DNA of 64,000 bases from an uncultured Candidatus Saccharibacteria bacterium (GCA_964593465.1 CAZQJY010000001.1:74480-138479); one strand, 5' to 3'; shown: positions 23,678-50,379, counted from the first letter of the stretch. The notes: generated by a model not told the origin, from the sequence alone. Numbers and translations are program-made.

Positions 23678-23735
23678 CTTTTGATTTCCTTCCTTATAGT
23701 CTGTTTATACCATACCTGAGTACAAAAATAAATGT

Positions 23736-24104: not shown

Positions 24105-24147
24105 TTTTATATTCCTTATGTTTTTCATATTGCGTATTATATACTAC

Positions 24148-24878: not shown

Positions 24879-24888
24879 ATCTATCCTC

Positions 24889-25290: not shown

Positions 25291-25676
25291 GAGAACACTG
25301 CCCCTGGTACCAAGAAATTAATAGCTGCGCCCATTAGTGCGTAGAGCACAAGGCCTATCACTACATTGCGGATTATCTCTTTGGCTTGATTTACCTGCTG
25401 CTCACTGTCGTGTGCAGATGCATAGAGAATCGACGCGTAAACAATAGCACCTACCGCCACTATACCGATGATGACCGTAAGGATACGGATAAACCACGCC
25501 AACATCTTAATGATGCCTTCCTTGCCCGTACCATCGCCGCAGTCGATGAGAGACGTTTTGATGCCTCCACAGCTAGCTGCTTGTGCCACATCGGGTGTCG
25601 CAAAAGCCAACATGCCGGCTGCACCGAGTCCAACGATGCCTGCCGCAAATATTGATAGTAGTTGTTTGATATTCAT
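25287..25676 (-). CDS. VirB2-like pilin (array gene 1)
   Basis: SCGGIKTSLIDC, IVYASILYASAHD..AKEIIRNVVIGL; start ATG 25676. Confidence 0.82.
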   Translation of the reverse strand: MNIKQLLSIFAAGIVGLGAAGMLAFATPDVAQAASCGGIKTSLIDCGDGTGKEGIIKMLAWFIRILTVIIGIVAVGAIVYASILYASAHDSEQQVNQAKEIIRNVVIGLVLYALMGAAINFLVPGAVFS

Positions 25677-25903
25677 AGTTCTTATGTACCAAGATATACT
25701 ATAGTGCAAATCACTGCAATACTATGCTAATTTTTTACTTTCAAGAGGCACGTCTATACTCTACAAAGACCTTGTGCTTATACTAGGCAATCGTGTAGAG
25801 TATAGACAGAGATGTCGGGGATAAAACAGACATACCATTTTATGAGTATTGCCGCTCAGTCGTGGCTACTGGGTGAGTTTCCTGACACCAAAGGAAAAGT
25901 GTC

Positions 25904-28591
25904 ATGATTCACAAGACGCTCTCCAGGGCTTTTCACCACAACAAACCGCTATTTTTTGCAGTAGCCTTTTTGATGGTCTCGATTACTAGCCTCGCATTCA
26001 ATGTAGCGAATTACTCTGTCTCATATGCTTGGTGCGAGAACAGGATAGATGGCTCATCCGAAAGAAATCACGACTGCCTAATCGATATGTATGACGAAAT
26101 GGGTAGCGAAGACCTAGCAGAAGGGTACACATTCGACCAGTACAATGCAGACATAGACACTTGCATGGGTGGCAATGCAGACGGAACATCCGGTAGTCCT
26201 GACGACCGTTCCGAATGCGCCAATGCCGTACTAACCTGCCGAAGACACTCCGTAGATATAAGCAAGTGCAGCAACGGCGACGTAACAGCCAGTATTGCTG
26301 AGTGGTGCAACGATGGCAAGAGGGGAAGTGCCGGTAGCGATGACTGTGACAGGCTAAAGAGCGAAAACGAAGACAGCTATGGCAAGTTACGCGACTCCTA
26401 CAAGGACAAGGCACGTGAGCATTGTTCTACAGCACAAACTCAACGAGATAGAGAGAATTGCGCAAAAGCCATAGAGGATGCATGTAATATACCTGGGCTG
26501 CAAGATGATGGCACTCCAAGCGGAACAAGTGCAGTAGCCGAGAGAAGACGGCTAAATAGTTGTTACGCAGAGGCACTAATGAATACCGCCACAACAAAAG
26601 AAGATTGTGAAGGTAGGGGTGGTAAGTGGCAAGCAAATAAGTGTGAGCCGGGTGATATTGAGTGTAAAAATGCCGCTGGCGATACAAAAACCGTTAAACT
26701 TGGCGAAGAATGTCCCGCTGGTTACACACCATCCGACCCTAATAATAATCCTCTCGGGGGAGATCCCAACTCTGGGGATCCGGATGCAGGAGGAGAGGAA
26801 GTTACTTGCGCCGTAGATGGAGTAGGCTGGATTGTCTGCCCGATATCAAACTTCCTCGCCAAAATAGCAGACACAGCATACAACCTCATAGAGGGCTTTC
26901 TTGGCTACAACATGATGAGCGACGCAGCTGCTAAAGATAAGCTACAAAAACAATGGTCCGTGTTTGCCAACTTGGCCAATGTAGCTTTTGTAATAGTATT
27001 TCTGATTGTTATCTTTTCGCAGGTGAGCGGATGGGGGATGGATAACTACTCACTCAAACGTATGATGCCGCGTCTTATTGTTGGCGCAATCCTCGTCAAC
27101 GCATCTTTTTGGATATGCGCCATAGCAGTTGATATGTCAAACGTACTAGGCACCAACCTCAAAGAACTACTTACACAGTCGGCAGGGAGCGGTGCGAATA
27201 ATGGCACCTGGGAAAGTGTGATGTCGAGTATTTTGACAGGTACCGCCGTTGTAGGAACAGCTATCGTCATTGGGGCAGTCGGAGCAGCACTTTCGGGCGG
27301 ATTCTTTGCACTACTAGGTCTAGCTCTACCTGTTCTAATAGGTGCACTAGTGGCAATCTTTACAGTATTCCTAATACTAGTAGCTCGCCAAGCACTCATC
27401 ACTATCCTTATAGTGCTTGCGCCCCTTGCGTTTGTAGCCAACCTACTCCCAAATACCGAGCAGTGGTACAAGAGATGGCAAAAAGCATTTATGGGTGTTT
27501 TGGTAGTCTTCCCTGCCATAGCTATACTTTTTGGCGGAGCCCAACTAGCTGCAGGTATTCTCATGAGTGCTGGCGGTATCACTATGAATATCTTTGCACT
27601 TGGCGTGCAGGCAGCACCACTCTTCTTAGTACTTACCGTCCTCAAAAAGCTGATGCAGGTGGATGGAATTGCAGGTATGTCGCAACGGTTTGGCGGCAAG
27701 TTAGGTGGCGCGCTCGGAAAAAAAGGACAAGAGGCAGCGAACAGGCGGCAAGCAAAATTCAATGCAAACCATATGGCACCCAGTAATCACAGCAGGTGGG
27801 ATCCTAGAAGATACGCAGGCGGAGCCGCACGGCGCGCAAAACAACATGCATGGGAGGACGGAATAACAGAGCAAAGAGCCAATGAGGCCTTTCGTAGTAG
27901 TAATTCAGAACGCCTGAGAAACGACCCTGAGTATAGAATGCGTATGGCTGGCAATAATGAAGATACGGCGAATCTACTCCGAGCACAGGCTGAGCAGCAG
28001 GGAGTTGAAGAGGCTACTAAGCATAAACAAGCATTTCAAACTAGATACGATGACATGAGTAGTGATGCGATAATGAGTGAGCTTGGCCTAACAATAGACA
28101 ATGACGGCAACATAGATGGCATGGAGCAAGCACTCGAGCGGAACGGTGCGCAGGTTGCTGCCGCAGTAGCCGCCCTTGGAAAGCGAGGTTTCGACAATAA
28201 CGGACACCTTGCTGGTATATCTAATGCAGTCATTGCGCATGCCGAAGGGTCGTCTATGGCACGTGGCGCAGTGGCTGAGTCTATGACTAATCTCGGTGTT
28301 ATGGGAGCGGGTGCTGCAAACGCAATGCGCATGGAGGGACCTGGTGGAGACAATCTTGATCGGCGACTAGCTGCATCAGCAGCAGGTATGAGCGAAGAGA
28401 ACATCGCAAAACTTCGAGGAAGTGAATTTGCAGCCGTTGCCAACGCAGCCCAACAAACAGGCAACTTCGATGCTATGACGAATTTAGTTGATAAATCAGA
28501 AAGACTTATTAACCCCGACCATCGATTGCATGGTCAGATAAAAGAAGGTACCATCCAAGAGATGGAACGATTAGGAATAAGACGACCATGA
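25904..28591 (+). CDS. VirB6/TrbL-like polytopic membrane protein with Cys-rich N-terminal domain
   Basis: CAVDGVGWIVCP, W..F.N.AN..F.I.FL..IFSQ, LVAR..L...L.PLA...LLP..WY.RW TM core; first gene of the T4SS-like operon. Confidence 0.75.
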   Translation: MIHKTLSRAFHHNKPLFFAVAFLMVSITSLAFNVANYSVSYAWCENRIDGSSERNHDCLIDMYDEMGSEDLAEGYTFDQYNADIDTCMGGNADGTSGSPDDRSECANAVLTCRRHSVDISKCSNGDVTASIAEWCNDGKRGSAGSDDCDRLKSENEDSYGKLRDSYKDKAREHCSTAQTQRDRENCAKAIEDACNIPGLQDDGTPSGTSAVAERRRLNSCYAEALMNTATTKEDCEGRGGKWQANKCEPGDIECKNAAGDTKTVKLGEECPAGYTPSDPNNNPLGGDPNSGDPDAGGEEVTCAVDGVGWIVCPISNFLAKIADTAYNLIEGFLGYNMMSDAAAKDKLQKQWSVFANLANVAFVIVFLIVIFSQVSGWGMDNYSLKRMMPRLIVGAILVNASFWICAIAVDMSNVLGTNLKELLTQSAGSGANNGTWESVMSSILTGTAVVGTAIVIGAVGAALSGGFFALLGLALPVLIGALVAIFTVFLILVARQALITILIVLAPLAFVANLLPNTEQWYKRWQKAFMGVLVVFPAIAILFGGAQLAAGILMSAGGITMNIFALGVQAAPLFLVLTVLKKLMQVDGIAGMSQRFGGKLGGALGKKGQEAANRRQAKFNANHMAPSNHSRWDPRRYAGGAARRAKQHAWEDGITEQRANEAFRSSNSERLRNDPEYRMRMAGNNEDTANLLRAQAEQQGVEEATKHKQAFQTRYDDMSSDAIMSELGLTIDNDGNIDGMEQALERNGAQVAAAVAALGKRGFDNNGHLAGISNAVIAHAEGSSMARGAVAESMTNLGVMGAGAANAMRMEGPGGDNLDRRLAASAAGMSEENIAKLRGSEFAAVANAAQQTGNFDAMTNLVDKSERLINPDHRLHGQIKEGTIQEMERLGIRRP

Positions 28592-28605
28592 GGATAATGT
28601 AGGAT

Positions 28606-29433
28606 ATGGCAGTATATAAAGTACCCCAAGACATCGAAGCCGAAGACAAGCTCCTCGGGCCGTTTACATTTCGACAATTCATCTATCTCATCGTAGTGGC
28701 GATGTCTGGTGGGCTGGGCTATATACTCTGGCAGCTAGCTCCGCCACTCGCGCTCATCTCTGCGCCACCAATTATCGTATTTGGCACACTTGCGCTACCA
28801 CTCAAAAAAGACCAGCCTATGGAAACATACGTAGGCGCAATGGTATCGTTTTACTTCCTCAAGCCCCGCAAGCGTTTTTGGCAGCCAGACGGCATCGAAT
28901 CACTCGTAGAGATTACTGCACCAAAAAACGCACCACCAGATCGCGTGAAGCACATCACGCAAGACGAAGCACGCGACCAGCTTGACTACCTATCCGACAT
29001 CGTAGAGTCTCGCGGCTGGAGTGTGCGTGGTGTTGGTGTTCCCCTGTCTGGCATCTCTGACACCACTGCCATGCAGCAACAACAGCCCGCCACGAGCGAA
29101 TACGACTCAGACGACATGTTTAGCAAAGGTAGCGCCAGCGCCCAAAGGTTTAGCCAAATCCTCGATAGCAGTGGCGGTACAGCTCGCGGCAAGCTACTTA
29201 CACAGTTCCAAGAACAAGCAAGCGCAATGCCCGCAGCACCGCCAGAACCAGCTACAACACAAAATCCTACGCCAAGCACTAGCGTAAACAGTGTATCTAC
29301 TGGTATAATTGACCTTGCAAACGATAACGCGGGACTTTCAGTGTCTGCGATGGCGAAAATCGCCAATATCCAGACCGATACAAAAGACCACGGATTATCA
29401 GATGGTGATGAGGGCGAGTTATCGTTACATTAA
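28606..29433 (+). CDS. PrgI family (VirB3-like) membrane protein
   Basis: YKVPQDIEAEDKLLGPFTFRQF, two TM helices, DQPME..KPRKRFW. Confidence 0.85.
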   Translation: MAVYKVPQDIEAEDKLLGPFTFRQFIYLIVVAMSGGLGYILWQLAPPLALISAPPIIVFGTLALPLKKDQPMETYVGAMVSFYFLKPRKRFWQPDGIESLVEITAPKNAPPDRVKHITQDEARDQLDYLSDIVESRGWSVRGVGVPLSGISDTTAMQQQQPATSEYDSDDMFSKGSASAQRFSQILDSSGGTARGKLLTQFQEQASAMPAAPPEPATTQNPTPSTSVNSVSTGIIDLANDNAGLSVSAMAKIANIQTDTKDHGLSDGDEGELSLH

Positions 29434-29470
29434 ACAGACAAAGTTGTTAGTAAACTAGGAGGGGTAGGGA

Positions 29471-30646
29471 GTGCAACCACAAAACCAGCAATATCCGCCG
29501 GCGGCAGATCCGTATGGCTATAATCCTGCAGCTCAGGGTGTACCCGCACAGCCTCCTATGGACCCGCAGCAGATGCAGCAGCCATATGTTGCCGCTCCTC
29601 AACCTGTGGCGGGAGTAGTAGACCCCTACACACAGCAACCCCCTATAGCACCAGCTTATCCGCCGGCGGCAGATCCGTATGGCTATAATCCTGCAGCTCA
29701 GGGTGTACCCGCACAGCCTCCTATGGACCCGCAGCAGATGCAGCAGCCATATGTTGCCGCTCCTCAACCTGTGGCGGGAGTAACGGATCCGTATGCCGGG
29801 CAACCCTCGGTAGCAATGCCGGAGCCAATCCCCACAGCCCCTACAACAAACCCAAATCTCATCCCCGACACAGCAGTGCAAGGTGCAACAGGTGCCAAAG
29901 AAGCGCCAAAAAAGGCACCTCAGCGCCCCAAAAACACCACCCAAAACACCTTACTCTTCTCGGAAATCCGTGACAATATGGTAGTTATGGCAGATGGCAG
30001 TTTTCGTGCGGTGATTGCCTGCGAATCCATCAACTTCGACCTAATGAGCGCGCGCGAACGCGAGGGTGTCGAGTTTAGTTACCAAAACTTCATCAATTCA
30101 CTCACACACCCAGTCCAAATCCTCATTCGTTCGCAAAAAGTTGACATCGGCCCCTACCTAGACCGCCTGACAAAAATCCGTAAGTCACAAGACAACATGC
30201 TCCTTGGGGTACTCATGGACGACTACATAGATTTTGTGGACATCCTAGCAGAGGAAGCCAACATCATGGACAAAAGCTTCTACGTAGTGATTCCGTATTC
30301 ACCAACAGGCGACCTAAGTAACATCAAAGACAAGGGCAAGGGATTTTTGGCTGGACTATTTGGTAGCACTACCAACCAAGCCATCACCAAGATCGACAAA
30401 ATCACTTACGAAAAAGCTAAGGATGAAATGAAACACCGCATCGACTCAGTCACAAGCGGGCTTTTCGCTATGGGTGTACACTGCGCGCAACTCAATACCA
30501 AGCAGCTCGGTGAACTTTACTATAGCTATTACAATCCAGACATCGCCATCCGCGAGCCTCTGGGTAACTTCGAATCCAACACCTTTACCTATGTACGCAA
30601 AGGCGAGGGCGAAGCACAAAGACCAAACATAGGAGGAAAAATATAA
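29471..30646 (+). CDS. T4SS VirB4 N-terminal-like partner (TcpE/TraC-type) with Pro/Gln-rich repeat N-terminus
   Basis: TQNTL..SEIRDN, NFDLMS.RE.E..Y..F.NSL..PVQI.IRS, FYVVIPY; upstream of the VirB4 ATPase. Confidence 0.72.
   Translation: MQPQNQQYPPAADPYGYNPAAQGVPAQPPMDPQQMQQPYVAAPQPVAGVVDPYTQQPPIAPAYPPAADPYGYNPAAQGVPAQPPMDPQQMQQPYVAAPQPVAGVTDPYAGQPSVAMPEPIPTAPTTNPNLIPDTAVQGATGAKEAPKKAPQRPKNTTQNTLLFSEIRDNMVVMADGSFRAVIACESINFDLMSAREREGVEFSYQNFINSLTHPVQILIRSQKVDIGPYLDRLTKIRKSQDNMLLGVLMDDYIDFVDILAEEANIMDKSFYVVIPYSPTGDLSNIKDKGKGFLAGLFGSTTNQAITKIDKITYEKAKDEMKHRIDSVTSGLFAMGVHCAQLNTKQLGELYYSYYNPDIAIREPLGNFESNTFTYVRKGEGEAQRPNIGGKI
29492..29782 (+). repeat. 126-bp perfect direct repeat (29492-29617 and 29657-29782; period 165 bp)
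   Basis: identical nucleotide copies encoding YPPAADPYGYNPAAQGVPAQPPMDPQQMQQPYVAAPQPVAGV. Confidence 0.92.
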
Positions 30647-32481
30647 TGGCCAAAAAGCAAGACGCTGTCGATATTGCTGCGCAGCAGCGTGCACGTGAAC
30701 AGGCCGAGGTGGAACAGGCATTCCTCAAGGGTGTCAATACACTTCGTGACCTGATTGCTCCTAGTAGCCTAGAATTCCACGCCGATCATTTCCGCCTAGG
30801 TACCAAGTATGGCCGCACGCTCTACATCTACGGCTATCCACGCCAGCTCTACACTGGCTGGCTTAGTAGTATTATCAACATGGACGAAGTGCTCGACGTA
30901 AGTATGTTCCTCTACCCAGTGGACACGCAAGTAGTGATGAACAACCTCAAGAAAAAGGTGACTCAGCTCGAAGCTAGCATGGCTATTAATCAAGAAAAAG
31001 GCAAGACACGTGACCCAGGCCTTGAAGCTGCGCTGCAAGATGCAGAGGAACTGCGAGACGAGTTGCAGGTGGGTAGCGAGAAATTCTTCCGCTACGGCCT
31101 CTATATTACGCTATACTCCGACAACCTAGAGGATATGACGTTTGTTCAAAACAAGGTAGAAACATTGTTTGGCCAGCAGCTCGTATTTAGCAAAGTAGCA
31201 AGCAGCCAGCAGGAACAAGGGCTCAATAGTACCGTGCCACACCTGATGGATCAGTTGCAGATTCGCCGCAACATGAACACAGGTGCTATCTCGACGTCGT
31301 TCCCATTTACCAGCGCCGACCTGACGCAAGAGCAGGGTATCCTCTATGGTATAAACATGCACAACAACGGTCTGGTAATCTTTGACCGCTTTACACTAGA
31401 AAATGCCAACATGGTGGTGTTTGCAAAGTCTGGTGCTGGTAAATCATTTACCGTCAAACTCGAGGCAGTTCGCTCGATGATGGTGGGCGCAGATGTACTT
31501 ATTATCGACCCAGAAAACGAGTACCAGAAGCTTAGCGATGCCGTGGGCGGCAGCTACATTCGTCTGAGCCTCAACTCTGACGTGCGCATCAATCCGTTTG
31601 ACCTACCAAAGGTAATCGACACAGAAGATAGCGACGACGCGCTACGCGCCAACCTTGTAACACTCCACGGCTTGCTCCGTCTCATGCTTGGCGGTGCTAC
31701 AGCTACAAACACCAACGTGACACTTAGCCCAGAGCAAGAAGCCGACCTAGACCAGGCACTTATCGACACCTATGCACGTATCGGTATCACTAGCGATCCA
31801 CTCACACACACCAGCCCTCCACCAACTATGAGTGACCTCTATGATACATTACTCCATATGGGTGGCACCGGGCCACAGCTAGCGCAACGCCTACGCAAGT
31901 TTACGAGCGGTACGTTTGCGGGTATATTCTCACAGCAGAGCAACGTAGACATCAACAACTCTATGGTCGTCTTCAATATTCGCGACCTAGAGGACGAGCT
32001 ACGGCCAATTGCCATGTATATCGTACTCAGCCACATCTGGAACATTACTCGCTCACAGCGCAGGAAGCGTATGCTCATTGTGGATGAGGCATGGCAACTC
32101 ATGAAATACGAAGACTCAGCAAACTTCCTCTTTAGCCTCGCCAAGCGAGCTCGTAAATATTACCTGGGGATCACCACAATCACACAGGATGTCGAAGACT
32201 TTATGAGTAGCAAAATGGGCCGCGCTATCGTAGCCAACAGCTCTATGCAGCTACTACTCAAACAATCCGCTAGTGCAGTAGATGTACTCGGCGATGTATT
32301 TAAACTCACAGAAGAAGAGCGCAAGCGCCTCGGCAGCTTCCCGGTAGGGCAGGGGCTTTTCTTTGCGGGGCAAAATCACGTACATATACAGGTGATAGCT
32401 AGCCAGACAGAGACGCAACTCGTCACGACAAATCCGCTCGAAGCAGTTAAGCAGGAAAAACAGCAAGAACAGCAAGGGTAA
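30646..32481 (+). CDS. VirB4-like T4SS ATPase
   Basis: AKSGAGKS Walker A, IIDPENEY, INPFDL, IVDEAWQLM Walker B, KRARKY, TQDVEDF. Confidence 0.92.
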   Translation: MAKKQDAVDIAAQQRAREQAEVEQAFLKGVNTLRDLIAPSSLEFHADHFRLGTKYGRTLYIYGYPRQLYTGWLSSIINMDEVLDVSMFLYPVDTQVVMNNLKKKVTQLEASMAINQEKGKTRDPGLEAALQDAEELRDELQVGSEKFFRYGLYITLYSDNLEDMTFVQNKVETLFGQQLVFSKVASSQQEQGLNSTVPHLMDQLQIRRNMNTGAISTSFPFTSADLTQEQGILYGINMHNNGLVIFDRFTLENANMVVFAKSGAGKSFTVKLEAVRSMMVGADVLIIDPENEYQKLSDAVGGSYIRLSLNSDVRINPFDLPKVIDTEDSDDALRANLVTLHGLLRLMLGGATATNTNVTLSPEQEADLDQALIDTYARIGITSDPLTHTSPPPTMSDLYDTLLHMGGTGPQLAQRLRKFTSGTFAGIFSQQSNVDINNSMVVFNIRDLEDELRPIAMYIVLSHIWNITRSQRRKRMLIVDEAWQLMKYEDSANFLFSLAKRARKYYLGITTITQDVEDFMSSKMGRAIVANSSMQLLLKQSASAVDVLGDVFKLTEEERKRLGSFPVGQGLFFAGQNHVHIQVIASQTETQLVTTNPLEAVKQEKQQEQQG

Positions 32482-32484
32482 TAC

Positions 32485-35400
32485 ATGTCTACTGCGCTCG
32501 ACGATGACAAGCTAAACCCTGCCAATACCTCCACTTGGGATGACGAAAGAGGTGCGCCAGCAATTAAAAGCGCCCGTGATGGAGAGCAGGCTAATTTTGA
32601 TCGTGAGCTCGACGGTATAACAAATGACTCCAATATATCCGACCTAAAAAATGCCGAAGGTAGCGGGGGCAACAAATCTGCAACTGACGGCAATATCGAG
32701 AAGAAAAAGGAAGAAGACGAAGAAGAGTCTGGTTTCAAAAAACGCCTCAAAAAATCTGGACCACTAATCGGTGTTGGTGGTATCATCGCAGCATTCATGG
32801 GTACTGCGAGCTTTTTTGGATTGCCTGCCGCACTACTTGTTACATTCGAGGGTGTTCTCACTAACGCAAACTCACACGATACGCGCGCTAATACAGTATT
32901 GATGCGTGGTCGCATGGGTGCAATGTTTAATAATATGCTTGGTACGGGCCGCGACTGCTCTGCCAGCAAAATCAAATGTAAAGTCGCAACCATGGGTAAT
33001 CGAGAGTTGAAGCGACTAAAGGCAATCGACGGCGTAGAGGTCGAGACCAATAAGTCCAAGAAAAACCCTTTTCGTAACAAAGTAAGAAAGATGTCTATAC
33101 CTCTAAGCGATGGCACGAAGGTAGAAGTGAAAAACGCCGCTGAGTTTAATCAGCTTATGCGTGATAACCCTGATTTTAGGCGAACAATGTTTCGTGTCCA
33201 GCATCCTATAGCCTCTGCATTTATAGGGGTTGGTAAAAATGGATGGTCAAAATTTAAAGACAAGATTCTCAAAAAATACAATATCAATATGGGAGATAAG
33301 TTTAAGGCATCCAAAAAAAAGGACCCTGAAGAGCGTGATAAAGAAAATAAAAAGAATATGAATGAAAAGACAGGTGCAGATACTGACAAGGATAAGAATT
33401 CGAGGATAGATAAGTATAAGAAGAAACTCAAAACCTCACAGCTTGGCAAAGCAGCCGACAAAGCCAAAGGTGGTATTAGAAAAGCTGCCATCAAATCTGG
33501 TGCTGGTGGTATAGCAGCGGGAGTTTCTTTGGCAACAATGCCAGTAGAATTAGCCTGTATGTCGTACAATATCATACGTGCATCGGTTGCTACAATCAAA
33601 GTAGCCTACATGAAAGATCTTGTGTCCTTTGCATATCCTTTTTTTCGCATAGCTAGCCAGTTACGCAATCAGGGAGATGTAGACCCTACCGAAGCAGAAT
33701 ATGTAGGTAAGAGAGTAGGTCTACAAGTAACCAAGTCTAGTGATAGCTCGATAGTTGGCAAAAATGCTACTGATTCTCAAGGTTTTCAGGCAGCCTTAAA
33801 CGGAGATGCCAGTAAACTAAAGGATCACACCAAGAAGCTTATGCCATGGTATATGGTTGGAGGAGTAAAGGGATCTGAGCTAATTAAAGGCGTACAAGAA
33901 ACCTTAGGTGGCAAAAAAAATATACGCAATATGTGTATAGCCGCAACTATAGCAGGGTTTGCAACAGGCGCAATTAGTGGAGTCGCCGCACTCGCGCAAT
34001 GCGCAACTATAGTTGGGTGTATTGCTCCGATTGCCGGAATGATACTAGGTTTTGTTGGTGGAGCGGTACTTGCAGATATTGTCGTAGACCAAGCTATAGA
34101 GGCTCTCACTAGCGAATCAGCTCAACGAATAGTCGAGGCGGGACTTGATGCCGATCTTGTAGGACCACCCCTAGGAGATGCTCTTGCCGGAGCAATGGCT
34201 ATCATGGGGACAGAAAAAGATCGCGCTTCTGGCCTTCGACCAGCAACAAGTACAAACGAAGTACTCGTCTACAACAAGACAACCGAGTCATATTACCAAG
34301 ACTACCTTGCTTTCGAGAAAGACGAGGCCGGAGAGACACCACTCAATCCATATAGAGAATTTTCGTTTGCAAATCAATTTATAAAAAGTATGTATCCTGA
34401 CGGGGTAAAAACAGATTCAATAGGAGGGATGCTTGGCAATCTCACGACAATCGCCATGACCCCAATGAAGCTCTTGGGCGGATCGGCCGCTTCTGCGGCG
34501 GCACGCAGTAGCGGATACTATATGCCAAATCCAATCACAGACGATATTGATAATCTTAAAAATGCTATTTCGCGTTGCGAAGATGTTCAGATGGAAGAAG
34601 TTGGATTTATATGCGATATGCACGGACGACCAGTGAGCGTCATAGACCCTAGGGTGCTAGGTTGTGCAGACAAGATGGCCAAGGGTGAAGATTTGATTGA
34701 TGTCGATGACGAAGGCACAAAGATGACAAAATGCTTCAGTGACATGATTGATTATATGACAGATAATGATTATATCGATGAGGAAGGCAAACCCACTAAA
34801 TTCGATACCTATAGCGACTGTGGGGGCGAGGAGGAGAAGAAGTGCGAGACAGACTACCTCTACTTCAAGGCATACTGCACAGAAGATAGGGTATACCCAT
34901 GGGGCACATCCGTCAGAGAGATAGATAGTGATATGATGAGCCCCAGCGCCACTAAGGCAAATAGCTGGAGAGATGGCGTACTATGCTCGGGCAAGAACGA
35001 AGCGGGAGAGGAAGATAGAGCATGGGCAAACAAAATCTATAACTTCTCATTCTACTACAACTTCTGCGAGTCACAGCTATCATTGCCAGAAAGTACAGAT
35101 GGATGCTGGGAAGACGAAGAAGCTGGGGGTAGCGGAAATGAAGCAAACACAAGCTCTGCTGAGAAAAATACTGGAGACTGGGAAGCGCCTGCAACTGGTA
35201 CGTGCGATGCGGCGTCCGGTGGATTCGGCTCCAGAGGTGGTGCGCACAAAGGTATCGATATATCAGCACCGTCAGGAACACCGCTTCTCGCGCCCACAAG
35301 TATGAAAATAATTTTTGTAGGAGTAAGTAGCGACGGTAGTACAGGTAACCAGGTCACCGCAACAGCAACCGACGGCTCAGATTATAGCTTTAGATTTATG

Positions 35401-38144: not shown

Positions 38145-38160
38145 TAAGAGGAGATTCTCA

Positions 38161-38550
38161 GTGGATATAGAGTACATACAAAGTTGGATATATAGGTATC
38201 GTTTCTTATTAATCATCATTTTTGTCGTAATCATAGCGGGCTTAGTGGGCGTTACCTCAATGCAAAACTACCGTGATACACATATAGCAAAAGAAACGAT
38301 AAATAAAGTCGTTGATCCTGCAGAATTTGAAATAAAAAAAGTACTTCTGTCGAATGAAGGCTGGAAGTACGTACAGATTGCATATACACAAGGAGAACTC
38401 AAAGGCACGACCGCCGTAGCAATACTCCACGACGAAGCAGATAGAACAGTTCTTAAGGTTGGGCCCGGAACTAGTTTATCAAAAAGTGTTATGAAAAACG
38501 CAGGTGTACCAAATAATATCCAAGCGGAAATACTAAGAATATCCCTATAG
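38161..38550 (+). CDS. small single-TM accessory protein (cassette 1)
   Basis: SD GAGGAG then GTG 38161; N-terminal TM; ends in GPGT..GVP..I. Confidence 0.7.
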   Translation: MDIEYIQSWIYRYRFLLIIIFVVIIAGLVGVTSMQNYRDTHIAKETINKVVDPAEFEIKKVLLSNEGWKYVQIAYTQGELKGTTAVAILHDEADRTVLKVGPGTSLSKSVMKNAGVPNNIQAEILRISL

Positions 38551-38568
38551 TTCGCGAGAAAATTTATT

Positions 38569-40101
38569 ATGAATCGTAATCCACTAGATCCACTCAAAAA
38601 AATAATAATCTACACCACAGTAATAGGTGCCATTACCTTAAGTCTGTTATTTTTTATCATCAATTATACGTTTGCCTATATAGCCGTCGAGAAACCAGAC
38701 GGTATACGTGATACGCGCATATCACTGTACTACAACTCCTACCAGAAAGAGATTGGAAAACCAGGTCTCCATATAGTCAAAAGGGGGGCTGATGAAATAT
38801 CCGTCTGGTCTGGTGATAATATACATACATCGTCACCTTTTAAAACTCCTTGGTATGGATTCTCCTATAAAAAGATTAAAATTCAGTATGATAAGAATGC
38901 CGATAAAGCCGCGTATCAATCCATGCTTGATGATGCATGTGGTACGTACAGTAAAAATCTAGCCACCTTGTTGCAATATAAGTGTACAGCACCGAGGGCA
39001 TTAACTCGGTTCAATACGCCTGACCGCGGAGAGTGGACAACGAATAGCATATATTCTGAAATTTATTTTGCAAACATGTCACCAAAGCCTTATATAGGGG
39101 GGTTATTGGGCGTGGACTACGACCTACACCACCCGCCCAGCATAGTCGCTATTCGCGATAACGGCAGCACAAGAAAATTCAATCCACCAGAAGGATATAG
39201 GCAGGATACATTCTCATCCGCAAAGATCTTTACCGATACGCACACTACGGAAAATAATCGCTTTGTAATTGTAGAGTCAGACGGAACAATATATTTAGCC
39301 ACACCTACATCCGATGATTTGTCGGCTATAGAATATAAAAAGATTGAGACACCAAAAGATTACGATATAAACAACTCTCAAACAATATGCGACATCAAAA
39401 AAACTATTGTTGCATGTTACACAGGGCAGACGAGCACGCCAAAAGGAGCGGTAAGCTCTAAGCCAACGAGGTCATATATAACAATAATGAATTTCGAGAA
39501 TAATGATCGACGTGAAATCAAACTACAGGATAATTTAATTTTACAGAATTTCGTTATTACAACAGACAGTAGGATGTTTGGTAGTAATCGTGGTGAGTTA
39601 CTATACTTCAAACAAGATAGAAGTGGGGACAAAGCTTTAGGTATTAAAATGTCTAAAGAAATCTCGGCAATCTCGGCTGATGACGATATATACTTCATTA
39701 AAAACAATGGCATCTACAAGGCAAGCACTACCACCTTTGAGTCGTATCGAGTGTTCTATTCTCCAAGTATACAGCCGGTAAAACTTATGACAGTCGATAA
39801 AAAGGTGTTTACCATCGGTAAATCAACATTTATTAAAAACTATACCTATGCATGGCAACTCAATAACCAAGATAATACTACTAATTCTCCCCGAGCTATT
39901 GACCTACTTCCATCTGTACCAGAATCCTCAACATATGGCACAACTGACCTTTCAGAAGATAAGTTATACATAGTAACACCTCTCACTCGTTCATCAAGTA
40001 ATAAAGATACTGAAAGAATAAAGCGTAACACTCTCGACTATCTTAAGCTTATTGGAGTTAATACCGACGAATTTACTATCGTATATCCATACGACAAGTA
40101 G
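38569..40101 (+). CDS. single-TM extracellular accessory protein, probably beta-rich (cassette 1)
   Basis: 510 aa; N-terminal TM; AT-rich; C-terminal ..LDYLKLIGVNTDEFTIVY. Confidence 0.75.
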   Translation: MNRNPLDPLKKIIIYTTVIGAITLSLLFFIINYTFAYIAVEKPDGIRDTRISLYYNSYQKEIGKPGLHIVKRGADEISVWSGDNIHTSSPFKTPWYGFSYKKIKIQYDKNADKAAYQSMLDDACGTYSKNLATLLQYKCTAPRALTRFNTPDRGEWTTNSIYSEIYFANMSPKPYIGGLLGVDYDLHHPPSIVAIRDNGSTRKFNPPEGYRQDTFSSAKIFTDTHTTENNRFVIVESDGTIYLATPTSDDLSAIEYKKIETPKDYDINNSQTICDIKKTIVACYTGQTSTPKGAVSSKPTRSYITIMNFENNDRREIKLQDNLILQNFVITTDSRMFGSNRGELLYFKQDRSGDKALGIKMSKEISAISADDDIYFIKNNGIYKASTTTFESYRVFYSPSIQPVKLMTVDKKVFTIGKSTFIKNYTYAWQLNNQDNTTNSPRAIDLLPSVPESSTYGTTDLSEDKLYIVTPLTRSSSNKDTERIKRNTLDYLKLIGVNTDEFTIVYPYDK

Positions 40102-40148
40102 CAGTACTTCAATACAGACAATTACTTCTAGCAATTCCATTATATATA

Positions 40149-40177
40149 TTGCATAATAAGCAATTTTACGCTATACT
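40149..40177 (+). promoter_or_regulatory. internal sigma70-type promoter before cassette 2
   Basis: TTGCAT, 17 nt, TATACT. Confidence 0.5.
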
Positions 40178-40249
40178 CTATCTGTAACTACGTAATCTCG
40201 TGTGCCATAGTGTGGGAGCTTACGAGAGATGGGAAACTACCACTGCTCG

Positions 40250-43165
40250 ATGTCGACAAATTTAGACGACAATCCAGATAAATACGCACCTCGCTACGAC
40301 GGTGAGTATTTACGTAAGAGTGAGCAGCAGCCAGACACCCATACAACAGACGAGCAGCAGCGCCTAGATCCCCCTCAGACACACACAAATCCATCACCGC
40401 GAAGCCGCAAGCAATTGCTACAAAAAGCTTTTAGCAACATACGTGGCACGCGTTCCGCATCACCTATACTCCTCATTGCAATACTACTATTTGGTGGCGG
40501 TAGTATATTCACTGCTATATTAGCACCAGGTGCGACACTTTTGCATCTAGCCGATACACTCGAGCGTGACCTCAACAGTCAGCTCTCTGCAATGGACAAG
40601 ACCTCTATGCAGCTATGGCGCACGAAGCTCAAGCAAACAACCTCAGGCTCGTGCGGGGCAGTGAAGCTAAAATGTCGCTTTGCCACAGTCAATGAAGAAA
40701 AATTCAGCAAAGCCGTACAACGCGCAAATGGCGGACGCACAGACGTGCTCCGTGTTCACTACGACGAAACAAAAAAAGGAGTGCTTCCTGGCAGATCAGC
40801 CATAAAATCTTTTGAGTATATCGACGACAAAGGCGTCTCGCACTCACTTGATTCAGCTGAAAAGTTTACTAGCTTTATGAAAGAAAATACCGGATTTCGC
40901 TCGATGATGTACGGTGTGTATAGTCCGCGCTTTTCACCGTTTAAAAACAAAGCTACGATGAAGTTCTTGAACAAAAACAAAACCAGCTGGGCAAAAAAGC
41001 TTGTTGGCAAAAACGAAAAGGAAGTTGACGCCAGTGCCAAGCGAGCTATAAAAGGCACAACCACACTAGCAGTAACAAAACTTACACCCGTAACAGACGA
41101 AGACGGCAACCAGACGGGGGAATACGAAGACGAGAAGGGTAATAAATACAGCGCCGACGAAGCCAAGGGCTTACTCGAACAAGAAGAGCGGATCAAAAAA
41201 AGCCCGACAACACAAAAGGTACTTGGTAACATGGCAAAGGGTGTACTGATCACAGGTCTTGCCGACACAGCCTGCACCATCTATAACACCTCGCGTGCAG
41301 TAAGTGTCAGCGCCAAAACTATTCGTGCCGCCGAATTGGTACGCACAGGTAATATCTACGCTATAAACGAACCTCATGCTATCAAAGCCGAGATGGCCAC
41401 GCCAGAAACGGTACAATACGCCTCAAACAACATCATGGCCATGGAACCGCGCACAAAAGTAGCCGACGAATCCCAGCTTGCCAGTACACCGGCTGGTCAA
41501 AAGCTTGCTGAAATAGATAATCCTAGTGGTGGCCAGACCGGTATGGATTCTCCTATATACAAAATATCGAGCAGCCAAGACTACCCAGAAAAGCTTGATG
41601 CCGAGACACAAGCACTGCTACCTGGCGGTGGACTCACGGGCACACTTGATAGTGTTAATACTGACATCGCAAACGCACTTGGATCTAACGATCCCGCTAC
41701 ACTATCCGAACGCTGCAAGATAATCCAAAACCCAGTTGTGCGTGGTGGCTCGCTCATTATCGGTATTGCAGCGGGTGTTGGTAGTTTTGGTACAAGTACG
41801 GCTTTTTCCGTAGCAGGTAGTGCGGCACTTGGGCTCGCCCTACCATACCTGACAGCACAGCTTGCTGATATGGTCGCAGGTAATGTCACCGAGGGACTCA
41901 AGGGTAAGAATCTTGTAAGCGCTGTATCTGTGGGGGCATCGCTTACCTACAACGGTATTGCACGCAGCCAAGGCATGATGACGATGAGCCCCGAAAATAT
42001 GGCTGATTATCAAAACGGTAAACGTGAGTCACTTGTAGCATATGACGAGATAGACAAGATGGCAGCACGCAAAAACCCTTTTGATGTGACAAATCAATTC
42101 TCATTTACCGGCTCGCTAGTACGCAGCAGTCTGCCAATCGCAGCAACAATTCGCAGCAATGGCGCAGGCTTAATTCAATCTCTCCCACAAATAGCATCAG
42201 TTGCAGCCAAAGCAATACTGCCGATAGCTGGCGCCGCAAGCGAACGAGATACACTCGTCCGTGCAGAGAGGTATAAGATGTGCGACGATGTGGACTACAA
42301 GGCACTTGGCGACGATGTAGCTGTTGATATAACTTGTGTGATGAACTTTGGCCTGCCACAAGAAGCAATGTCACTAGAAATAGATGAGGCGACAGATTAT
42401 ATGATTGCCAATGGCGAGGTGGATGCTAATGATATATCTGGCGATCCTGTTGACAATGGCAACACCTGGAATTACGCCAAATACTTAGAGCAGTGTCGCG
42501 ACAGTCAACCAGGTGCTGTCGAAGATATAGAGTCCGAACCAACCAACGGTGCCGGTTGCACTGATGAGAAAAATTTTGAGAAAAATTATCACTATGCGAA
42601 GTTTGAGGTGATTCGAAATTCTGATGACGGTATAAGCCAAGAGCTTCCCGGCATGGACAGTGGCGCACAACAAGAGTTTACTGATGGCTCTGCAGGTGAA
42701 ATTGGACTCGACGGCTGGGCATATCCAACCGACAAAAACAAGACAGAGGTATCGAGTAATTTTGGTCCTCGTGACGGAAAACAACACAATGGTGCTGATC
42801 TTACAGGGCCTCTTGGTACACCTATTTATGCCGCGAGAGACGGCGAGGTGATTGCTGCGGGACCCGCTAGCGGCTTTGGTAACTGGATTGTCCTTCAGCA
42901 CGACGTCAACGGCAAGCGTGTCGACACCGTCTACGGCCATATGCAGCGCAGCGGCGTGCTGGTGCGCGTAGGGCAACGAGTAAAAGCTGGCGAGATGATT
43001 GGCCGCATTGGCAATGAAGGCCAAAGCACCGGACCACACCTTCATTTTGAAGTATGGGATGGCGGGCGTAGCGATATGGAAGGTGGGTCTGGCGGCAAGG
43101 CAGTCGATCCGGCATCGTTTCTCGAAAAAGCATCAAGTAGCAACAGTAATGCGAGGGATGTTTAA
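40250..43165 (+). CDS. giant membrane-anchored M23 peptidase (cassette 2)
   Basis: start MSTNLDD (ATG 40250) mirrors MSTALDD of the paralog; HNGADL..YGHM..STGPHLHFEV. Confidence 0.85.
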   Translation: MSTNLDDNPDKYAPRYDGEYLRKSEQQPDTHTTDEQQRLDPPQTHTNPSPRSRKQLLQKAFSNIRGTRSASPILLIAILLFGGGSIFTAILAPGATLLHLADTLERDLNSQLSAMDKTSMQLWRTKLKQTTSGSCGAVKLKCRFATVNEEKFSKAVQRANGGRTDVLRVHYDETKKGVLPGRSAIKSFEYIDDKGVSHSLDSAEKFTSFMKENTGFRSMMYGVYSPRFSPFKNKATMKFLNKNKTSWAKKLVGKNEKEVDASAKRAIKGTTTLAVTKLTPVTDEDGNQTGEYEDEKGNKYSADEAKGLLEQEERIKKSPTTQKVLGNMAKGVLITGLADTACTIYNTSRAVSVSAKTIRAAELVRTGNIYAINEPHAIKAEMATPETVQYASNNIMAMEPRTKVADESQLASTPAGQKLAEIDNPSGGQTGMDSPIYKISSSQDYPEKLDAETQALLPGGGLTGTLDSVNTDIANALGSNDPATLSERCKIIQNPVVRGGSLIIGIAAGVGSFGTSTAFSVAGSAALGLALPYLTAQLADMVAGNVTEGLKGKNLVSAVSVGASLTYNGIARSQGMMTMSPENMADYQNGKRESLVAYDEIDKMAARKNPFDVTNQFSFTGSLVRSSLPIAATIRSNGAGLIQSLPQIASVAAKAILPIAGAASERDTLVRAERYKMCDDVDYKALGDDVAVDITCVMNFGLPQEAMSLEIDEATDYMIANGEVDANDISGDPVDNGNTWNYAKYLEQCRDSQPGAVEDIESEPTNGAGCTDEKNFEKNYHYAKFEVIRNSDDGISQELPGMDSGAQQEFTDGSAGEIGLDGWAYPTDKNKTEVSSNFGPRDGKQHNGADLTGPLGTPIYAARDGEVIAAGPASGFGNWIVLQHDVNGKRVDTVYGHMQRSGVLVRVGQRVKAGEMIGRIGNEGQSTGPHLHFEVWDGGRSDMEGGSGGKAVDPASFLEKASSSNSNARDV

Positions 43166-45235
43166 ATGAAAAAGCTTCGTATTATCTCGCTGCTATTTGC
43201 TGCTATCCTAATCACGCAAGAAGTGATTTTTCCTATCGACGTAATGGCGATATCCGACCCAAATAGGTTAATACGTCAAGATGCGTGGGGTATTGATGAC
43301 GAATGCGGCGTACCAACAAGCACCAGTGAATCTACCGATAACCTGCAGGAGGTAGTGAACGAAATTGTAGACGACGCAAAAAATAAAGGTGTCAATGCAT
43401 CCATAAAAATAAGTGGTGATCAATCCGCCTCTGCCGGATCATCAAGTCAGATGCCATCTGCGTCTATTATAAAACTCTTGGTTGCTGTAGCACTGATGAA
43501 AAAAGATATACCCCTCAATGACGTACGCACAGACCTAGAAACTATGATTCGAGACTCTGATAATGCGGCCGCCAATAGACTTATCAATGCCGCTGGCGGG
43601 TTTGATGCTATCAATACAGCAGCTCGTGAACTAAACATAGAGAATGATATTCATATCGGACGAAAAATGCTCGAAACACCCACAGGTTCCGACCCAAACA
43701 CTATCTCATCTACAGGCTCCGATATACTACTTGGCGCTATCAAAAAGTCTGCTGATAGCAGTGATCCTGTGAGTAAAGAGTACGCAACTGCTATCATCTC
43801 TGCTATGAAGAGCCAAACTGTAAACACGAAATGGGGCTCTTCTGGTATTCCTAGGCAACATATCGCCCATAAAACAGGTGAACTTGGTGGTGCGCAGCAT
43901 GATGTGGGATATTTTCTCAAAGATGATAGGTGGCTAGCCGTAACAATCCTCACGAACGAGCCTAATAGTAATGGCTCTCAGGGTATAGAGGTGGTGAAAA
44001 ATGCAGCCAAAAAAATCTGGGACGCATGGGAAAAAGGAGGTGAGATAGGCGACGACAATCAAGAGTCTGAAACTGTAGGCTCTCAAGACGAGCTAACTAC
44101 TAGTAGCTCATGCTGTCTCGACCCAAGCGCCAGCCGCGTTGCTCTAGCCGGCAATAACAATGTCGAAAAAATACTCAACTTCTATATGCGTAAAGGCCTC
44201 AACCTTGCCCAAGCAAGCGGTATCGTTGGTAATATGATGCAAGAGTCTGGCCTCAAACCAAATATCGTACAGGGTGGACGACTTATAGCACCAGGCGAAA
44301 ACTATCGCATGCAAAACGGTGTAGGGTTTGGGCTGATTCAATGGACATTCACTGGCAGACAAAAACCACTCCAGGATCATGTCGATAAAATGGGTGTTAA
44401 GAATACCGACCTCAGTGGGCAATTGAGTTTTACATGGGTAGAATTAACCGGGCCGTATCTTTCAACGTTGAATAATCTCCGGCGTACCAACGATCCTATA
44501 CAGGCGGCTGTTGTTGTACACGATGGCTACGAAAAATCTGCTGACTCTGCAGGGCAGGTGCGAAGTGTGCGTGGTGGTAATGCAAAGAAAATTTTCGACC
44601 AATACAAAAACGCGCCGGCATTAGCTGGAAGCTCCGCTGCAAGCGCCATGAATAATCCGTCGGGATTAGAAGAAGTTGACGCACATGGGCAAGCTGACAC
44701 AGAAACAGCAGCTAGTGTGGACGAAAGTGGTGAATCCACAGGAGGCTGCGGCAGTGCAGCTGGCGGCAACTTCATAGATACTCTCAAAGCCTACGCTTGG
44801 CCAACATGGAAAGGTCTAGACACTAAACCCACCAACTCTTACGCAGGAGCTGTATCAAGAGCTTTGAGTGGAGGATTTTATGTTGGCGGCATCAGGTATA
44901 GAGGGATTGACTGTGGTGGATTTGTTACACTTCTAGTACGTGATAGTGGTTATGACAAGGGCTATAACTTCGATGGCAAAGGAGGCCCCACAAGCTCTCA
45001 GGAACAATGGATGCGCTCAAACTGGCAATCACTCGGGTCGAGCTCTAGTATTAACGCTGGTACGTTGCAACCTGGCGACGTTGCAATTAATTCAACTCAC
45101 ACGTTTATATACGTTGGAGATGTTCCAGGGTTTGGATCTAAAATAGCGTCCGCCTCACTCGATGAACGTGCACCAATGGCCGATACGCAACAGAGTCCAA
45201 CTCAACCGGGTTATAATTGGTACAGGAAAAAATAA
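43166..45235 (+). CDS. secreted multi-domain hydrolase: class A beta-lactamase-like serine peptidase + phage-tail-lysozyme-like + NlpC/P60 (cassette 2)
   Basis: signal peptide; SIIK, SDN, HKTG; GIVGNMMQESG..GLIQWT; GIDCGGFV..PGD..H. Confidence 0.85.
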   Translation: MKKLRIISLLFAAILITQEVIFPIDVMAISDPNRLIRQDAWGIDDECGVPTSTSESTDNLQEVVNEIVDDAKNKGVNASIKISGDQSASAGSSSQMPSASIIKLLVAVALMKKDIPLNDVRTDLETMIRDSDNAAANRLINAAGGFDAINTAARELNIENDIHIGRKMLETPTGSDPNTISSTGSDILLGAIKKSADSSDPVSKEYATAIISAMKSQTVNTKWGSSGIPRQHIAHKTGELGGAQHDVGYFLKDDRWLAVTILTNEPNSNGSQGIEVVKNAAKKIWDAWEKGGEIGDDNQESETVGSQDELTTSSSCCLDPSASRVALAGNNNVEKILNFYMRKGLNLAQASGIVGNMMQESGLKPNIVQGGRLIAPGENYRMQNGVGFGLIQWTFTGRQKPLQDHVDKMGVKNTDLSGQLSFTWVELTGPYLSTLNNLRRTNDPIQAAVVVHDGYEKSADSAGQVRSVRGGNAKKIFDQYKNAPALAGSSAASAMNNPSGLEEVDAHGQADTETAASVDESGESTGGCGSAAGGNFIDTLKAYAWPTWKGLDTKPTNSYAGAVSRALSGGFYVGGIRYRGIDCGGFVTLLVRDSGYDKGYNFDGKGGPTSSQEQWMRSNWQSLGSSSSINAGTLQPGDVAINSTHTFIYVGDVPGFGSKIASASLDERAPMADTQQSPTQPGYNWYRKK

Positions 45236-45894
45236 TGCAATACGAGCCAGCTTACTACATCGGAAAATATCGTACTCATATATTTGTGACATTTATCGTG
45301 CTATTAGTGGCTATTATTAGTTTTGTTATATATACGCAGTGGCGAAATTCTATCGAGCGAGCCGGCAAGATTGCCGTGCCTGTAGAGGTAGCTCCACGAG
45401 ATGCAAGTGTAAAATTAGGTGATGATTCTATAACTAGTCGCGGCACAGCCTGGATTACACCAGGCGAATACGAGGTCGTGGTGACACGCGAGGGATTTAA
45501 ATCACAAACACGTACAATTCGCGTATCCGAAGATGCTGAGCCATATATTTATATCGCACTCGCTGGCAACACAGACAAGGCAAAGAAGTGGCAAGAGTCG
45601 CACCAGTCGGAATACAAACGTCTCGAGCTACTCACAATTCAAAAATCGCGCGAATACAATACCAGGTTCAAGTCAAACAACCCAATTGTAAATATTTTAC
45701 CAATCAAAGATCCGTATTATTCCATAGATTATCGCAATAATAATGACAAGAATATTGAGCTAATTATTTATGGCACATCACCGCAATATAGGCAGGTAGC
45801 TGTGGATTTCCTGCGCAAACAGGGATACGATCCGATAGACTACAAAGTGACATATGAGGGATTTAAAAATCCGCTAGGAAACAACGATGAATAG
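45235..45894 (+). CDS. single-TM PEGA-like accessory protein (cassette 2)
   Basis: TAATG overlap with the hydrolase; TM; PGEYEVVVTREGF PEGA-like motif; LP..DPYYSIDY..AVDFLRKQGYDP. Confidence 0.78.
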   Translation: MQYEPAYYIGKYRTHIFVTFIVLLVAIISFVIYTQWRNSIERAGKIAVPVEVAPRDASVKLGDDSITSRGTAWITPGEYEVVVTREGFKSQTRTIRVSEDAEPYIYIALAGNTDKAKKWQESHQSEYKRLELLTIQKSREYNTRFKSNNPIVNILPIKDPYYSIDYRNNNDKNIELIIYGTSPQYRQVAVDFLRKQGYDPIDYKVTYEGFKNPLGNNDE

Positions 45895-46504
45895 TGTACG
45901 AGCTGGCAAGATTACTCGAATGATACTCATTGTCATTGCTGTAACTGCATGTCTTTATGGTGTGTGGGCATATATATTTTCGTTTCAAACAGTCACTTTC
46001 ACATTTGATGATAAGCTTGGCTACATAGAAATAGAGAATAGTAGTAAACAAAAATTGTACCCAAAAAACAATCAAGTCGCACGACTCAAAAAGGGTGAGT
46101 ACACAGCCAAAAATATTGGCAAAAACATCACCAAAGATACACGAAAAATCACTATAGCCAGTGGTATACAGAGCGTAGAGACATCATTTAGCTATACCGA
46201 AAAATATTTAGAAAAGCTATATGCAGCAGAAAAGGAAACTATCTACAAGGTACTTCTGCGTGAGTATCCAGAAATTAGCAAGTTGTATGTAATTCGCACA
46301 GACAGACTCTACGCTCGCGGTAATGTGTTTGGCGCGACACTCATTGCTAAAGATCAAAATAGTGATAATGCAGATACCTTGCGAGTAGTTATGCAAAAAA
46401 AATCCGATAGATGGGAAGTGCAATCCAAGCCGCCAACACCAATCCTTAGCGCAGCAGAATACCCGGATATACCGCGTGACGTCTTACTTAAAATCAACAA
46501 TTAG
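45887..46504 (+). CDS. single-TM accessory protein (cassette 2)
   Basis: N-terminal TM; LKKGEY; C-terminal WEV..PP..YPDIP..L. Confidence 0.75.
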   Translation: MNSVRAGKITRMILIVIAVTACLYGVWAYIFSFQTVTFTFDDKLGYIEIENSSKQKLYPKNNQVARLKKGEYTAKNIGKNITKDTRKITIASGIQSVETSFSYTEKYLEKLYAAEKETIYKVLLREYPEISKLYVIRTDRLYARGNVFGATLIAKDQNSDNADTLRVVMQKKSDRWEVQSKPPTPILSAAEYPDIPRDVLLKINN

Positions 46505-50285: not shown

Positions 50286-50379
50286 TGTAGCCGTACTCTC
50301 CCTATATTGAATTTGTACCTCGATACCTTGTAGTAGGGTTTCGAAGTGTTCTATATAAAAACTATAACGAAGTATATAG

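Follow-up and report, generated by a model that had tools for sequence, protein, structure and literature searches.

What is a type IV secretion system (T4SS)-like machine doing beside a replication origin, is it a resident of the chromosome or an element that can still move, and does its direction of transcription matter? These questions are raised by positions 25904-46504 of a 64,000-nucleotide stretch of DNA (the window; C1:74480-138479) from an uncultured Candidatus Saccharibacteria bacterium, whose genome, labelled G000 here, comprises 925 kb in 22 contigs at 47% GC. An earlier note on the window had described a domesticated machine fixed beside the chromosomal origin (oriC) and had read it as a host-attack or feeding apparatus rather than an integrative and conjugative element (ICE). 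Our analysis leads to a similar view. The locus is very probably this organism's copy of the conserved chromosomal T4SS-like system of Patescibacteria, derived from monoderm (MPF_FATA-type) conjugation machinery, and the evidence favours a vertically inherited, non-conjugative locus fixed beside recF-dnaN-dnaA. The system, its relaxase-free state, its site near dnaA, its pilin array and its essentiality have already been published, and the sole addition made here is the head-on, convergent orientation across the phylum.

Open reading frame (ORF) calling and searches with Pfam and NCBIfam profiles resolved twelve closely packed ORFs on the plus strand between 25904 and 46504. They encode VirB6-like, PrgI/VirB3, TrsD and VirB4 proteins, four large wall hydrolases and four small or unassigned proteins (sizes in amino acids, aa):

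25904-28591, plus strand: VirB6/TrbL-like polytopic membrane protein of 895 aa, its N-terminal outer domain rich in Cys and its C-terminal tail long
28606-29433, plus strand: PrgI/VirB3-like membrane protein (PF12666, 1.1e-13)
29471-30646, plus strand: TrsD-like protein, a separate VirB4 N-terminal domain (NF041427, 8e-6; VirB4_plasma positions 98-234)
30646-32481, plus strand: VirB4 ATPase of the CD1110/MPF_FATA-like monoderm type (NF045971, PF19044, PF12846)
32485-35607, plus strand: membrane-anchored protein, 1040 aa, with a C-terminal M23 peptidase, first hydrolase pair (PF01551, 3e-19; HxxxD and HxH motifs)
35598-38144, plus strand: secreted multi-domain hydrolase, 848 aa (PF18013, 9e-20; PF01510, 6e-15; PF13472, 2e-4; PF00877, 2e-3)
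38065-38550, plus strand: possible small membrane protein, 161-aa ORF with uncertain start (ORF only; GC 0.39)
38569-40101, plus strand: 510-aa protein of low GC, with no family match in profile searches
40229-43165, plus strand: membrane-anchored M23 peptidase protein, 978 aa, second hydrolase pair (PF01551, 5e-29)
43166-45235, plus strand: secreted hydrolase, 689 aa (PF18013, 9e-29, lysozyme-like; PF13354, 4e-20, class-A beta-lactamase/DD-peptidase-like fold)
45217-45894, plus strand: bitopic membrane protein, 225 aa, conserved in 25 loci
45887-46504, plus strand: bitopic membrane protein, 205 aa, of like build, the operon's last gene

The VirB6-PrgI-VirB4N-VirB4 core described in the earlier note was recovered by direct profile matches, except for VirB6, whose label is suggested by matches among its homologues. 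The likeness to monoderm conjugation modules was likewise borne out, as VirB4 matches NF045971 (CD1110) and TrsD matches NF041427. VirB4 scored 375.7 bits against NF045971 (4.5e-112; curated cut-off 325), its Walker A (GAGKS) and Walker B (LIVDEA) motifs are intact in translation, and only weak, sub-threshold matches were obtained to CedB and CedD. The lineage is Candidatus Saccharimonadales/Saccharibacteria, with VirB4 79-91% identical across named loci including Nanosynbacter and Microsaccharimonas; the protein encoded here is ~81-83% identical to those of such named Saccharibacteria and, among the matches listed, 49-57% identical to VirB4 of other Patescibacteria classes. By profile score and pairwise identity, it is assigned to the Patescibacteria VirB4 clade related to MPF_FATA. 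This genome carries a single VirB4. The stop codon of the trsD-like gene overlaps the virB4 start (30646). Within the TrsD-like gene, a 159-nt tandem duplication (29492-29815, copies 92% identical) repeats the Pro/Gln-rich N-terminus. In case of the 895-aa protein, searches against Pfam, NCBIfam and PDB sequences and profiles gave no match of its own, while 1686 homologues were found; of 30 aligned sequences, comprising the window protein (itself without a match) and 29 homologues, 12 matched PF04610 (TrbL/VirB6), with a best value of 3e-8. The same-genus relative G003 carries two tandem VirB6-like paralogues (G003:C1:23490-27506) where this genome has one.

Conservation of the locus was surveyed at several levels, and since the genomes compared share ancestry, none of the counts that follow represent independent events. 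VirB4 was present in 38 of 41 same-order genomes (71-94% identity) and in 294 of 301 Patescibacteria genomes sampled evenly across the phylum. Where VirB4 and dnaA lay on one contig within the order, the two genes were convergent in 30 of 31 genomes at distances of 4.7-18 kb, the exception being a genome with a relocated locus (G016). Absence from most relatives, which the earlier note had named as grounds for abandoning its view, was thus not what we found, and the synteny comparison it had proposed returned the same site beside recF-dnaN-dnaA in those 30 genomes. Mapping by tblastn in four relatives (G003, of the same genus, and G006, G018 and G027) gave one gene order: pilins, then VirB6-PrgI-TrsD-VirB4-hydrolases, then recF-dnaN-dnaA, then rnpA-yidC-jag. 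TrsD and PrgI were found directly upstream of virB4 in these four genomes and in most of 80 loci with the upstream flank present. Further, in 55 of the 59 named Saccharimonadales loci with at least 9 kb of sequence downstream of VirB4, including Nanosynbacter, dnaN lay on the strand opposite VirB4 and 5-9 kb downstream; it was on the same strand in none. Identities to G003 were graded, at 93% for VirB4, 81% for DnaN, 76% for DnaA, 65% for TrsD, 49% for PrgI, 40% for VirB6 and 24-48% for the hydrolases. By this measure the ATPase appears strongly constrained and the envelope-exposed parts fast-changing.

The locus is larger than the operon. The extent given in the earlier note holds for the operon, whereas its left boundary does not hold for the system, to which the pilin genes missed by that note belong; the locus spans ~21.1 kb (or 23.3 kb) to 46.5 kb. 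Seven matches to PF18895 were detected, six of them in tandem:

21081-21605, plus strand: solitary VirB2-like pilin gene, the seventh copy (PF18895, T4SS_pilin, 8.9e-8)
23261-25709, minus strand: six diverged VirB2-like pilin genes in tandem (PF18895 in all six; PF04956, TrbC/VirB2, in three)
25710-25903: divergent intergenic region of 194 bp separating the VirB6-like gene from the pilin array, presumably with promoter function

The array is transcribed divergently from the operon, has a strong terminator-like hairpin at its end (23238-23213) and is also present in G003, G006, G018 and G027. Two tRNA-Ser genes flank the solitary pilin gene (20988-21080, gct, minus strand; 21669-21758, tga, plus strand), and neither tRNA-Ser end was found repeated at the opposite end of the locus.

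The monoderm conjugation ancestry, visible in the CD1110/MPF_FATA-like VirB4 and in TrsD, raises the alternative that the locus is a present or recent ICE, or a remnant that still moves DNA through unlinked type IV coupling protein (T4CP)-like ATPases and an unrecognized relaxase. Searches of the window found no relaxase, VirD4 coupling protein, integrase or att repeat, as had been claimed for it. Relaxase families PF03432, PF03389, PF01076 and PF02486 were missing from all 22 contigs, and the MOBC, MOBM, MOBH and MOBF types were not searched; the restriction to four families leaves some room for this alternative, as do the tRNA-Ser genes at the pilin end. A single tyrosine recombinase was detected in the whole genome, ~95 kb from the T4SS and thus not nearby. 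No flanking direct repeats or att sites were found at the locus beyond short chance matches, and the latter were rejected as att candidates. Both flanks consist of housekeeping genes, on the left GroEL, a Mur ligase, TsaD, FemAB, ValRS, RlmH, HIT, ComF-like and Hsp20 genes and on the right those for the RNase P protein, YidC, Jag, glycosyltransferases, SucCD and ABC transporters.

Coupling proteins bear most directly on this alternative. The absence of VirD4 holds for the window but not for the organism, whose contigs C3 and C10 encode two T4CP-like ATPases, both matching TrwB_AAD_bind, T4SS-DNA_transf and TraG-D_C. In a search of 41 genomes (this one and 40 relatives) a T4CP-like homologue was present in all 41 and both paralogues in most. 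The two ATPases are core genes, which speaks against their being part of a mobile element and at the same time makes it less apt to say that the system "lacks a coupling protein". In 7 of the 40 relatives (G004, G010, G015, G017, G031, G032 and G039), but not in this genome, a second VirB4 paralogue (38-39% identity) was found, in each case with its own T4CP-like gene within ~3 kb (e.g. G015:C2:388314-393015). This patchy module may be a T4SS of its own in Saccharimonadales, and a mobile one, and stands in contrast to the universal locus at oriC; that it has an adjacent T4CP of its own argues against an ICE reading of the latter. Together with the universal, syntenic and highly conserved state of the locus across order and phylum, a skew ameliorated to its replichore (see below) and the published finding of relaxases in only 103 Patescibacteria genomes (PMC12102498), these results make an ICE or an active remnant extremely unlikely. 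A chromosomal apparatus, as the earlier note had proposed, accounts for the conserved site, the near-universal presence and the lack of mobility genes found in the window.

The locus is also in agreement with what has been published, T4SS-like loci in Patescibacteria being known, as previously noted, from two studies (PMC10633639, PMC12102498). In Southlakia epibionticum ML1, the T4SS SEML1_0006-0019 was essential for epibiotic growth in transposon sequencing (Tn-seq) experiments (Wang et al. 2023, PMC10633639). Its nearest counterparts are conjugative systems of Gram-positive bacteria; a series of pilins, likewise essential, forms part of it, and neither coupling nor relaxase proteins could be recognized (PMC10633639). 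A phylum survey by Quinonero-Coronel et al. (2025, PMC12102498) described a distinct VirB4 clade related to MPF_FATA together with TrsD, PrgI and VirB6. Its VirB2 arrays comprised 2-11 genes, virB4 was followed downstream by genes for peptidases and lysozymes, and homologues of the T4CP mostly lay at a distance from virB4; the T4SS was located near dnaA, dnaN, rnpA and rpmH, which was read as a gene-dosage effect. The points of both papers are restated in a 2025 review (PMC12857230). Orientation relative to replication comes up neither in these papers nor in the review or a 2024 perspective (PMC11665869), and among the papers listed by a full-text search none brought head-on transcription together with Patescibacteria. 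The locus studied here has the same parts in the same order (pilin array, VirB6, PrgI/VirB3, TrsD, VirB4, peptidase/lysozyme homologues), lacks a linked relaxase or T4CP, and is chromosomal beside dnaA/dnaN. It differs in that this genus has two wall-hydrolase pairs instead of one, with the low-GC 510-aa gene between them. The window thus adds no new system type but a well-annotated example with two such pairs, for a machine that belongs to the small set of functions with demonstrated essentiality in the epibiotic life of Patescibacteria.

Comparison with MPF_FATA systems (pGO1/pSK41 Trs, pCF10 Prg, pIP501 Tra, CTn2 CD1110) shows the CD1110-type VirB4, PrgI and the lack of outer-membrane core components to be common features. 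A separate TrsD-like N-domain protein is also present in pGO1, and PrgK, TraG and TrsG are analogues of the multi-domain wall hydrolases found here. Unlike the MPF_FATA systems, the locus has no linked coupling protein, adhesin, oriT or relaxase (the last as judged by the four Pfam families searched), carries VirB2-like pilins that Gram-positive systems lack, and is chromosomal, universal and vertically inherited. Precedent for VirB4-driven machines without a T4CP in the operon, and for import, is provided by Bordetella Ptl, Brucella VirB, Helicobacter ComB and archaeal Ced, although these are diderm or archaeal systems with other accessory parts.

By analogy with the Southlakia Tn-seq results (PMC10633639), the system would be required for epibiotic growth. 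We infer, as did the authors of PMC10633639 and PMC12102498, a function in host attack or feeding. A VirB4 hexamer anchored by PrgI and VirB6 would power the building of a VirB2-type filament or conduit that crosses the epibiont wall. Attached hydrolases would open the wall of the epibiont, and probably that of the host, at the contact site, and the conduit would then move macromolecules between epibiont and host, with direction and cargo left unspecified in this model. The hydrolase families present act on glycan strands (lysozyme-like), on the MurNAc-L-Ala amide bond (Amidase_2) and on peptide bridges (M23 and the weak NlpC/P60 match).

Several points weigh against this interpretation. The VirB6-like label of the 895-aa protein, obtained by transitive homology, is reasonable but indirect. 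The hydrolases carry predicted Sec-type signals or transmembrane (TM) anchors and may serve only to remodel the epibiont's own wall, as in a VirB1 role, rather than to attack a host. Channel architecture also appears incomplete. The two conserved 3' genes were considered VirB8 candidates, and their products were the only ones folded (AlphaFold2; mean pLDDT, the predicted local distance difference test, of 85.7 for the 225-aa and 84.8 for the 205-aa protein). Besides a TM helix, both models contain a transthyretin/PEGA-like beta-sandwich along with a small alpha/beta domain; Foldseek matched the 225-aa model to carboxypeptidase regulatory/transthyretin-like domains, and the 205-aa model gave weak beta-sandwich matches. 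VirB8, PrgL and TraM chains were not among the Foldseek PDB matches of these two models, and both candidates were rejected since beta-sandwich matches only, and no NTF2-like VirB8 fold, were obtained. Further, the core T4CP-like ATPases may permit substrate coupling, even of DNA, and the relaxase types outside the four searched families count on the same side. The position of oriC, on which the orientation of the operon depends, is inferred from sequence. Finally, the 2024 perspective called the role of the T4SS "completely unknown" and named the uptake of nutrients or DNA among the options (PMC11665869). An essential role in DNA uptake is unproven, as comEC-dependent competence is dispensable in Southlakia (PMC12857230).

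Whether the operon faces the replication fork depends on the location of oriC, which the earlier note had placed at ~48.7 kb. The relevant features are (genes by Pfam):

46508-47548, minus strand: recF
47552-48652, minus strand: dnaN
48653-48914: dnaA-dnaN spacer, with three near-consensus DnaA boxes at 48.70-48.91 kb, where the corrected skew at third codon positions (GC3) changes sign
48915-50387, minus strand: dnaA
50388-50585: AT-rich dnaA-rpmH spacer, with four DnaA boxes (two perfect) at 50.38-50.49 kb, second half of a bipartite oriC

The first box of the dnaA-rpmH group starts at 50380, within the 5' end of dnaA. The genes rpmH, rnpA, yidC and jag on the plus strand diverge from dnaA-dnaN-recF on the minus strand, which is the canonical layout. 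The DnaA-box clusters at dnaA and the corrected cumulative GC3 skew, with its minimum at 48652, both agree with the proposed origin. With oriC at dnaA, a plus-strand operon in the left replichore runs head-on to the fork, again as the earlier note had claimed.

The cumulative GC skew check gave a divided answer, since the coding-corrected GC3 curve supported this origin while the bulk curve did not. For contig C1, the bulk cumulative GC skew traces a V with its minimum at C1 ~100 kb, corresponding to ~25.5 kb in the window. Taken at face value, this minimum would put the origin between the pilin array and virB6, so that the T4SS would be co-directional with replication and dnaA-dnaN-recF head-on. 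However, a DnaA-box scan of 25710-25903 found none at 25.7 kb, compared with seven boxes around dnaA, and the canonical divergent gene layout lies at dnaA as well. The bulk minimum is explained by the T4SS genes, whose first codon positions are strongly enriched in G (skew +0.33), whereas their GC3 skew of -0.19 matches that of other left-arm plus-strand genes (-0.28) and not that of right-arm plus-strand genes (+0.13). Based on this codon-position analysis, bulk GC skew was rejected as an origin marker, and an origin at ~25.5 kb is very improbable. A caution follows for this genome, in which bulk GC skew misplaces the origin. Among the relatives, the GC3 skew of G003 mirrors that of G000, while those of G018 and G027 are dominated by coding strand and uninformative. 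With the origin at dnaA, the operon would lie on the lagging-strand template, head-on, with a composition that appears ameliorated to the left replichore.

Is the head-on orientation then itself under selection? At 20.6 kb the operon is the longest head-on block on the contig, and outside the class the arrangement recurs: within 25 kb of dnaA, we counted 28 convergent loci in at least 17 families and five co-directional ones, four of them in one family. Placement head-on against the origin could link expression of the T4SS to the cell cycle (attached mother versus swarmer) or to the initiation of replication, either by encounters between fork and RNA polymerase or by convergent read-through into recF-dnaN-dnaA, or it could speed the evolution of host-interface genes. 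The retention of convergent dnaA linkage in those families and in nearly the whole order is in line with such selection, as is the fast divergence within the genus of VirB6, PrgI and the hydrolases. It does not extend to the head-on VirB4, which is better conserved (93%) than DnaA (76%). Moreover, all but one of the six relocated copies (46-187 kb from dnaA) are co-directional, and in at least two lineages, family f40 and genome G143, the locus is dnaA-linked yet co-directional. Head-on genes are also common here, amounting to 34% of coding sequence on the contig and including a 9-kb block across oriC, and the shared ancestry of the compared genomes weakens the counts. We regard selected placement as unlikely.

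The same applies to the junction with recF. As the earlier note had observed, the operon abuts recF-dnaN; the last T4SS stop codon lies 3 bp from that of recF, no terminator-like site or stable hairpin was detected at the junction (z = -0.02), and across 57 loci the median gap is -1 bp. This could be taken to suggest that a conserved, terminator-less tail-to-tail abutment at ~2-25 kb from oriC has been selected to tie host-interface expression to replication initiation in attached mother cells. Tight junctions are ordinary in this genome, with a gap of at most 20 bp in 41% of 143 convergent pairs, and for this reason the 3-bp junction was rejected as a special feature. Selection on the abutment is quite unlikely in our assessment. 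Instead, since most copies that have left dnaA are co-directional, the simplest view of the head-on orientation is that of an ancestral arrangement retained along with dnaA linkage and not of a requirement of the machine. Orientation travels with the linkage and is lost with it, which fits inheritance better than a functional requirement. What remains is a phylum-wide count in which the operon, where linked to dnaA, is mostly convergent with it and hence head-on (28 of 33 outside the class), a small refinement of the published near-origin gene-dosage idea.

The hydrolase region distinguishes this genus from its relatives. The second hydrolase pair, together with the low-GC 510-aa gene, accounts for a VirB4-dnaA distance of 15-18 kb in this genus compared with ~7-10 kb elsewhere. 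Over their full length the two M23 proteins are paralogous (23% identity), the 978-aa protein being 48% identical to its G003 counterpart, while the two secreted hydrolases have only the lysozyme-like domain in common. The 848-aa hydrolase combines an N-terminal signal-like sequence with Amidase_2 and lysozyme-like domains and with weak SGNH/GDSL-like and NlpC/P60-like matches. No family match was obtained for the 161-aa ORF in Pfam-type profile searches. Only 2 of 80 related loci (L036 and L039) encode homologues of the 510-aa protein, a distribution suggestive of an accessory gene that was inserted between one hydrolase pair and the other. The interval 38000-41000, which takes in the 161-aa ORF, the gene for the 510-aa protein and the beginning of the second M23 gene, has a GC content of 0.39-0.41 compared with ~0.47 for the genome.

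In a wastewater metatranscriptome (X6), near-identical contigs of 200-475 nt were found on hydrolase genes, recF and dnaN, and none spanned 45.9-46.5 kb. These contigs are consistent with expression but are not proof of it, DNA carry-over being possible.

Two further observations concern the surroundings of oriC and its initiator. A second DnaA-like ORF, located outside the window at C3:1272-2651 (540-aa frame), is 33% identical to the window DnaA (E 5.7e-73); no second DnaA match was found in the 40 relatives at a cut-off of 1e-30, and the ORF seems particular to this genome. To the right of oriC, the 9-kb minus-strand block at 52703-61775, also head-on, is a glycan cluster in which sucC (55183-56253) and sucD (54315-55190) lie among GT2/GT4 glycosyltransferase genes, followed by Wzm/Wzt-type ABC transporter genes. 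Sequence from the window was present in metagenome DNA runs of unspecified source (the strongest signal), compost and wastewater.

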